A DNA stretch of 64,000 bases from Mycoavidus cysteinexigens (GTDB taxonomy: Bacteria > Pseudomonadota > Gammaproteobacteria > Burkholderiales > Burkholderiaceae), in the NCBI GenBank assembly GCA_031963005.1, contig JASSUL010000005.1, forward strand, positions 82,939 to 146,938, given 5' to 3'. The notes under the pieces were generated by a model, which saw nothing but the letters and a program-made list of their open reading frames with translations, had not been told where the DNA came from and searched no databases. This document shows positions 59,580 to 60,113 of this stretch, piece after piece. Numbering within the stretch: the first letter of the stretch is position 1; each line of letters starts with the position of its first letter. Both the position numbers and the translations under genes were made by a program.

Positions 59580-60113
59580 CTATGCAAGCCAGCAGTTACT
59601 AGGGATCACAGGCGTACTCACCACACCACATCCCTTTTTCACATTACCTGATACTTTATCTCGCATTTTACTTTCCTCTTCTTTTATTATATTTAAACCA
59701 TCAATAATATAATTATGACTAGGCATAGTATACGCAATAATGATTCCAGACTCATCATATACATAGGCATTTTCTGAATCTCTCACACATGCATTTTCAG
59801 AAAAATTGGCAGCATCATTTATTTTATTTTTATCAAAAACATTTTCCTCAAAACCATTATTACCCTCAATCTTTGCTTTTTTATGCAGTTTATCCGCGCA
59901 AAAACTTGCATCTAATTTTCTTTTTTTATTATTTGAATATAAATTTTCTTTTTCGTCTCTTAAACACTCATATTTAATTTCTTTTAATACATTTTCATCC
60001 AATACACTGGGGTTAGTGATATTTATATAGTCATTCACAGTTAAACTTCTATGTTGATAAATTTGCGTTGCAACATATGGATTACCATTTCCCCCAGAAC
60101 TGCCTATATCCAT
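59580..60113 (-). CDS. Orphan AT-rich protein, 177 aa, with basic NLS-like clusters and a C-terminal CWLA; candidate effector
   Basis: Only long ORF in an AT-rich gap between lpxK and nadB; I recognise no family. Confidence 0.55.
   Translation of the reverse strand: MDIGSSGGNGNPYVATQIYQHRSLTVNDYINITNPSVLDENVLKEIKYECLRDEKENLYSNNKKRKLDASFCADKLHKKAKIEGNNGFEENVFDKNKINDAANFSENACVRDSENAYVYDESGIIIAYTMPSHNYIIDGLNIIKEEESKMRDKVSGNVKKGCGVVSTPVIPSNCWLA

Follow-up and report, generated by a model that had tools for sequence, protein, structure and literature searches.

Members of the genus Mycoavidus are endosymbionts of Mortierellaceae fungi, and the M. cysteinexigens bacterium whose DNA is described here is probably an endofungal member of the Burkholderiaceae with a reduced genome, its assembly amounting to 2.197 Mb in 28 contigs at 45.2% GC, within a GTDB family that includes insect symbionts of 0.2 Mb as well as free-living bacteria with genomes of 7 Mb. 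The question raised by its lpxK-nadB spacer is whether a small protein predicted to be encoded there is addressed to the interior of the fungal cell. Within the window, i.e., the whole 64,000-nucleotide stretch of DNA that was analyzed, a 177-codon open reading frame (here termed ORF177) had been singled out in an earlier note as an orphan joining a bipartite nuclear localization signal (NLS)-like motif to a C-terminal CaaX-like box, the combination used by nuclear lamins. The best explanation, to which we assign a probability of roughly 0.55, is that ORF177 represents a real, species-specific orphan gene carrying chance motifs. Shown directly are the reading frame with its signature of coding, its position in the genome, its lack of relatives, and the background-level frequency of the two motifs.

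ORF177 is located on the minus strand at positions 59580 to 60113, opening with an ATG at position 60113 and terminating at a TAG stop codon (59580 to 59582) after 177 amino acids. Its start lies three codons past an in-frame stop codon, with no sign of truncation, and weak support for this start is provided by a Shine-Dalgarno-like AAGG, read from the sequence at 60120 to 60123 (minus strand), 6 nt 5′ of the ATG. The frame has a GC content of 31%, distributed over the three codon positions as 0.40, 0.31, and 0.21 (GC1 > GC2 > GC3), and specifies a protein rich in asparagine (12%), lysine (10%), and isoleucine (8%). When the 869-nt, 31% GC spacer was shuffled with its dinucleotides preserved, the longest stop-free frame averaged 74 codons, and a stop-free frame of 180 codons arose in 1 of 3,000 shuffles (p ~3e-4). 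A codon model trained on the long low-GC ORFs of this genome (113 in number) returned an in-frame score of 0.183 bit/codon for ORF177, as compared to 0.229 ± 0.05 for the training genes and −0.072 ± 0.057 for random sequence free of stops and matched in base composition; none of 3,000 such simulations reached the ORF177 score (z ~4.5). All five other reading frames at this position scored negatively, and the codon usage of ORF177 is that of the low-GC gene class of the genome. The length of the frame, coupled with its class-typical codon usage, points to current or very recent coding constraint, and it appears quite likely that ORF177 codes for a protein now or did so until very recently. Neither a signal peptide nor a transmembrane segment was found in its product, for which a single-sequence AlphaFold2 model was poor (mean pLDDT of 43).

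Searches for relatives of this protein returned the query only, both in a word-indexed comparison against 5.8e9 proteins and in an exhaustive phmmer search of 1.84e9 representatives. No family matched in Pfam (E ≤ 1) or NCBIfam, no match was obtained in PADLOC or among PDB sequences, and three matches to PHROGs (E values of 0.02 to 0.06) were discarded as noise. A homologue was likewise absent from a six-frame search of the genomes of 40 relatives (best E value of 0.03) and from the JGI metagenome contigs, and no paralogue was found among all stop-to-stop frames of at least 50 codons in the bacterium's own genome. The sole other record of ORF177 is a Logan contig of SRR5822800, which is 100% identical to the window across 4,866 nt; it is probably the same material and, being identical, adds no independent information. 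Based on these protein, profile, relative, metagenome, and own-genome searches, ORF177 is a complete orphan, and the earlier note was thus correct with regard to both the exact position of the 177-residue frame and its orphan status.

The region in which ORF177 resides is bounded by two conserved genes of approximately 50% GC, namely, lpxK (58329 to 59393, minus strand) and nadB (60365 to 62068, plus strand), which are adjacent and divergently oriented in all six same-genus genomes that were compared. Between them lies an AT-rich stretch of approximately 870 nt around ORF177, with a GC content of 24 to 38% in 200-nt windows. Of this, the 251 nt from the start of ORF177 to that of nadB (60114 to 60364; GC content of 0.29 to 0.37) presumably harbor the divergent promoters. 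A promoter-like site for nadB is present therein at 60293 to 60320 (plus strand), while a search of the same 251 nt for a minus-strand promoter upstream of ORF177 yielded no site at the threshold applied; a further promoter-like site is located inside ORF177 itself (59963 to 59936, minus strand).

The corresponding spacer of other members of the genus is variable in length, composition, and content. In three same-genus genomes it spans 256 to 496 bp at 41 to 44% GC and is devoid of a long ORF, in a fourth (G004) it measures 354 bp at 34% GC, and in a fifth (G002) it extends to 683 bp at 27% GC and contains an AT-rich ORF of 165 codons (L095:5568-6065, minus strand). The latter is co-directional with nadB, an orientation opposite to that of ORF177, and is also unique, with nothing related to it in the genome studied here (G000). 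The possibility that it represents a diverged ORF177 orthologue was considered and rejected, the two sequences being unrelated. The spacer DNA of the window shows no similarity to the spacers of the sister genomes or to any other part of its own genome, and no marks of mobile-element insertion (flanking direct repeats, a tRNA gene, or an Rfam family) were found at ORF177. The occurrence of a different orphan ORF in one sister spacer, together with ORF-less spacers in three species, indicates that this site turns over AT-rich orphan ORFs, and the lpxK-nadB spacer is a hotspot of orphan-ORF turnover. On the far side of nadB, a second AT-rich ORF (62174 to 63235, plus strand) encodes an ankyrin-repeat protein (Ank_2, E = 4e-13) whose C-terminal stretch is hydrophobic and aromatic and for which tblastn against the syntenic loci of the six same-genus genomes gave no match. 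Since ORF177 and this ORF are both species specific, nadB sits between two species-specific AT-rich islets.

Such turnover is also what would be anticipated if ORF177 were a non-functional frame, either recent or decaying foreign AT-rich DNA in which the frame happens to have been kept or a proto-gene without productive expression, a possibility to which we accord a minority share of belief. It would account for the status of ORF177 as a singleton without relatives, for the fast turnover suggested by the unrelated ORF in the spacer of one sister species and the lack of any in others, for the lack of a promoter or terminator match, and for the low confidence of the structural model. It is countered by a frame length and a codon usage that random sequence of the same kind hardly produces (p ~3e-4 and z ~4.5, respectively), by the Shine-Dalgarno-like AAGG, and by a start codon close behind an in-frame stop, which gives no hint of a shortened frame.

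Among approximately 1,758 ORFs obtained by greedy calling, 214 (12%) fall into a low-GC class (defined as <38% GC), of which 80 form solitary islets between ORFs of normal GC content. ORF177 is one of these approximately 80 solitary AT-rich islets and is, therefore, not exceptional in its genome; it is most likely a young or fast-evolving accessory gene.

The two motifs for which it had been singled out are both present, precisely where the earlier note had placed them. The NLS-like basic stretch, KKRKLDASFCADKLHKKAK, occupies residues 63 to 81 (59871 to 59927, minus strand) and fits the classical monopartite and bipartite patterns alike, while the CaaX-like box, CWLA, forms the C-terminal end of the protein (residues 174 to 177; 59583 to 59594, minus strand) and is compatible with a relaxed CaaX consensus under the farnesyltransferase (FTase) rules of yeast. 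The caveat attached to them at the time, that both could have arisen by chance, was borne out by genome counts and shuffles, in which the frequency of each proved to be that of the background.

Within KKRKLDASFCADKLHKKAK, KKRK (residues 63 to 66) conforms to the monopartite K-K/R-x-K/R pattern, and RK-x11-KKAKI conforms to the bipartite (K/R)2-x10-12-(3 basic of 5) pattern. In composition-preserving shuffles of ORF177, a run of four basic residues appeared in 2.7% and the bipartite pattern in 4.4% of cases, and among low-GC ORFs of fewer than 250 amino acids the respective proportions were 6.0% and 8.3%. The joint occurrence of both patterns was rare in the ORF177 shuffles (0.2%), which speaks against a chance origin, although the two draw on the same KKRK cluster. 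The NLS-like match is mildly unusual for one protein and unremarkable across the number of ORFs that a reader scans. The basic stretch is placed in a loop and a helix by the low-confidence structural model (pLDDT of 43).

With regard to the C-terminal box, a comprehensive screen in yeast has shown most CXXX sequences to be accepted by FTase, the exceptions being those in which a2 is D, E, K, or R or X is K, P, or R (Kim et al. 2023; bioRxiv 10.1101/2023.02.06.527295). CWLA, in which a2 is L and X is A, passes these rules; given their permissiveness, the cysteine at position −4 constitutes the sole information in the motif. Such a cysteine is present in 23 of the 1,758 ORFs of the genome (1.3%), a proportion that compares to an overall cysteine frequency of 1.22%, and the count at position −4 (23) shows no excess over those at C-terminal positions −1 to −12, which range from 14 to 32. 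CxxX ends were found in 2 of the 214 low-GC ORFs and in none of 15 ORFs preceded by an hrp box (see below), so that enrichment beyond the cysteine background was absent genome-wide, in the low-GC class, and in the hrp-box set. No search returned an ORF177 orthologue in which a conserved CWLA box could be sought. The bacterium, in short, shows no sign of selecting CaaX ends. The tail that bears the box is modelled without secondary structure and with pLDDT values below 50 over residues 155 to 177, and residues 158 to 177 are modelled as an unstructured tail, in a model that is itself poor (mean pLDDT of 43).

A basic-cluster motif and a CxxX end are found together in six ORFs of the genome, as compared to approximately two expected, and a four-basic run with a CxxX end is found in three. 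For a single orphan noticed by eye in a window of 64 kb, the pairing of an NLS-like with a CaaX-like motif does not go beyond chance. A separate protein of this genome, a 1,440-residue WD40-repeat protein of normal GC content (48%) encoded at C2:17595-21917 (plus strand), ends in CIVM, a canonical Ras/lamin-type CaaX box that is a far better match than CWLA, and no other large repeat protein of this genome has a strict CaaX end; given the background rate, this end is probably also due to chance.

Although these frequencies offer no support for selection, the genomic setting raises the prior that eukaryote-type motifs might be meaningful in this bacterium. Two non-flagellar SctV proteins scoring above the SctV equivalog cutoff are encoded, one within a cluster at C10:3421-17572 and the other at C16:108391-110400. 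The former cluster is of the Hrp2 type, comprising SctC, SctT, SctN, SctL, HrpB4, SctJ, HrpB1, SctU, SctV, and HpaP, and an hrp box is located 157 nt upstream of hrpB1. Defined as a perfect TTCG-N16-TTCG within 300 nt upstream, the hrpII/PIP box precedes 15 of the 214 low-GC ORFs, as compared to 10 of the 1,544 others (Fisher p = 1.3e-8); in the low-GC set, seven permuted control words gave counts of 0 to 4, and the reverse-complement word CGAA gave 7. The distance from the box to the low-GC ORF ranges from 60 to 275 nt and is mostly 80 to 130 nt. Examples of such boxes are located at C2:53529, C3:43692, C11:33850, C12:88197, C14:132466, C14:132559, C14:201698, C21:59863, C21:135582, C22:30002, C23:123260, and C25:1521, and no perfect box is present in the 64-kb window.

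The box-bearing set has the appearance of an HrpB/HrpX-type regulon, its members being candidate type III secretion system (T3SS) effectors. Its low-GC members include three, each encoded on the minus strand, with eukaryote-like or effector domains: a 1,077-residue protein with an F-box and ankyrin repeats (C11:30506-33742), a 456-residue protein with RNI-type LRR_6 repeats (C14:130982-132355), and an 857-residue protein with a Peptidase_C58 (YopT/AvrPphB-like) segment (C21:57227-59803), none of which ends in CxxX. The prior for meaningful eukaryote-type motifs is raised by the two SctV proteins, the Hrp2-type cluster, and these F-box/ankyrin, LRR, and YopT-like classmates. The presence of two T3SSs and of hrp-box-associated, eukaryote-like candidate effectors in the genome renders a host-directed role for ORF177 plausible, and some role in the fungal host may be entertained as a tentative proposition.

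A more specific proposal is that ORF177 is a translocated effector, delivered by a T3SS or another route, in which importin-alpha reads KKRK(L) and/or host FTase lipidates C174, with the nucleus, membranes, or the nuclear envelope as the destination of the protein. In addition to the two SctV proteins above the equivalog cutoff, the Hrp2-type cluster, and the hrp-box F-box/ankyrin, LRR, and Peptidase_C58 proteins of the low-GC class, such a role is compatible with the FTase-permissive CWLA, the tail modelled (at low confidence) as unstructured, and the lack of a Sec leader. The combined S, T, N, Q, G, and P content of the N-terminal 50 residues is 0.42 in ORF177, close to the 0.44 of the hrp-box ORFs, but a polar N terminus is typical of the low-GC class as a whole (0.385, as compared to 0.32 for the remaining, higher-GC ORFs). 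In this comparison, which is one of composition, serine and D/E account for 0.08 and 0.12, respectively, of the N-terminal 50 residues of ORF177 and for 0.125 and 0.073 of those of the hrp-box ORFs, and the aspartate at position 2 of ORF177 is atypical for Hrp effectors. Moreover, no hrp box was found in the 320 nt upstream of ORF177, even when one mismatch and a spacing of N15 to N17 were allowed, CxxX ends are nowhere enriched in the genome, and none of the 15 hrp-box candidates carries one. We therefore consider this proposal unlikely, and the same holds for the functionality of either of the two motifs. The NLS/CaaX reading is nonetheless biochemically permissible, as KKRK fits the importin-alpha consensus and CWLA passes the FTase rules.

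Comparison with characterized systems places the orphan-gene reading of ORF177 in perspective. Legionella pneumophila reportedly possesses prenylated Dot/Icm substrates, among them AnkB and the Pel/CaaX-motif proteins, which are said to have been described by Price and by Ivanov in 2010. In these substrates and in Salmonella SifA, the box is canonical and its use has been demonstrated experimentally, and the genomes concerned encode several CaaX proteins. ORF177 resembles them in originating from an intracellular bacterium and in bearing a Cys-x-x-x on a tail that is modelled, at low confidence, as flexible, but differs in that it is a lone protein with a background-frequency CWLA, without relatives, enrichment, or a recognizable domain. 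In contrast to the L. pneumophila substrates, its putative delivery would proceed via a T3SS rather than Dot/Icm.

With B-type nuclear lamins, ORF177 shares the order of motifs, a basic NLS-like cluster being followed by a terminal CxxX, yet it comprises 177 residues as compared to approximately 600, and the likeness consists of two short motifs. Membership of the lamin or intermediate-filament family was rejected, as neither a coiled-coil rod nor a lamin-tail (Ig-like) domain was detected using Pfam and PDB sequences. Fungi are not known to have lamins. That both ORF177 motifs function as a lamin-like address would be decidedly improbable, and equally so is the full scenario in which the protein is injected, farnesylated at C174, imported via KKRK, and anchored at the inner nuclear membrane of a lamin-less host.

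A further comparison is offered by the Hrp2-type effectors of the HrpB/HrpX regulon in Ralstonia, Xanthomonas, Burkholderia, and Mycetohabitans, given that the present genome also combines an Hrp2-type cluster with box-bearing low-GC ORFs. ORF177 resembles the hrp-box ORFs of its own genome in base composition, codon usage, and an S/T/N-rich N terminus, whereas it differs from Hrp2-type effectors in lacking a box, even a degenerate one, and a eukaryote-like domain. The TAL-like (Btl/Bat) effectors of endofungal Mycetohabitans are T3SS delivered and enter the fungal nucleus in an NLS-dependent manner (PMC11261895). They represent a precedent for a nucleus-directed effector in an endofungal Burkholderiaceae symbiosis, from which ORF177 differs in lacking TAL repeats or homology and in that its NLS-like motif is a putative one. 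By these comparisons, ORF177 appears to belong to no known effector family. Because both motifs occur at the chance rate, it is best regarded as one more candidate for a host-directed protein, of an ordinary kind, rather than as a demonstrated lamin-like mimic.

The orientation of ORF177 relative to lpxK also bears on how it might be expressed. lpxK, whose product was matched to the Pfam LpxK family on the Logan contig, is followed by ycaR and then kdsB. Its product is 54 to 69% identical to same-genus LpxK proteins by tblastn, and 58 to 70% identical in a second comparison; the top named relative is that of Candidatus Vallotia tarda (53%), with Cupriavidus next. The longest lpxK frame opens at position 59495 and would specify 388 residues, with which relatives align only from approximately residue 40; in a 354-residue form, alignments with relatives start at residues 4 to 8. 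This late alignment start indicates that the true start of lpxK is probably the ATG at 59393, in which case the 5′ extension from 59394 to 59495 (minus strand) is probably untranslated. The gap between the stop codon of ORF177 and this probable start thus amounts to 186 nt (59394 to 59579, minus strand) and, as it contains no terminator-like hairpin, read-through from ORF177 into lpxK-ycaR-kdsB is possible. That ORF177 might be a bacterial-internal small protein, acting as the leader cistron of this envelope operon with which it shares a strand across a terminator-free gap, is nevertheless highly improbable, as it is missing from every relative that possesses the same operon, its GC content is 31% as compared to approximately 50% in the operon, and the promoter-like site at 59963 to 59936 (minus strand) could serve lpxK alone.

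It is, therefore, the favored explanation of a real orphan gene with chance motifs that we develop here. ORF177 would be a genuine species-specific gene of the AT-rich accessory class, situated in the conserved divergent lpxK-nadB spacer and its transcription would presumably begin in the AT-rich stretch that it shares with nadB and might continue into lpxK. Its product is predicted to be a soluble protein of approximately 20 kDa without a Sec leader, membrane segment, or known domain, with an N terminus rich in S, G, and N and a C-terminal tail that is probably flexible. The KKRK...KKAK cluster and the CWLA end would then most likely be unselected by-products of a lysine-rich composition and of a 1.2% cysteine background, respectively, even if both would be chemically competent should the protein reach the fungal cytosol. 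If functional, ORF177 may, like the other members of its compositional class, encode a rapidly evolving protein that interacts with the host.

Were both motifs to work, ORF177 would be the first bacterial effector with a lamin-type NLS-plus-CaaX address, and no prenylated effector would have been reported before it from a symbiont living inside fungi; if true, this would provide a handle on the route by which such bacteria gain access to the nucleus of the fungus or to the nuclear envelope. When a lysine-rich orphan carries a C-terminal CxxX and a basic cluster, this is no evidence on its own, and the hrp-box candidate set, with its F-box/ankyrin, LRR, and YopT-like proteins, represents the better starting list for the effectors of this symbiont.
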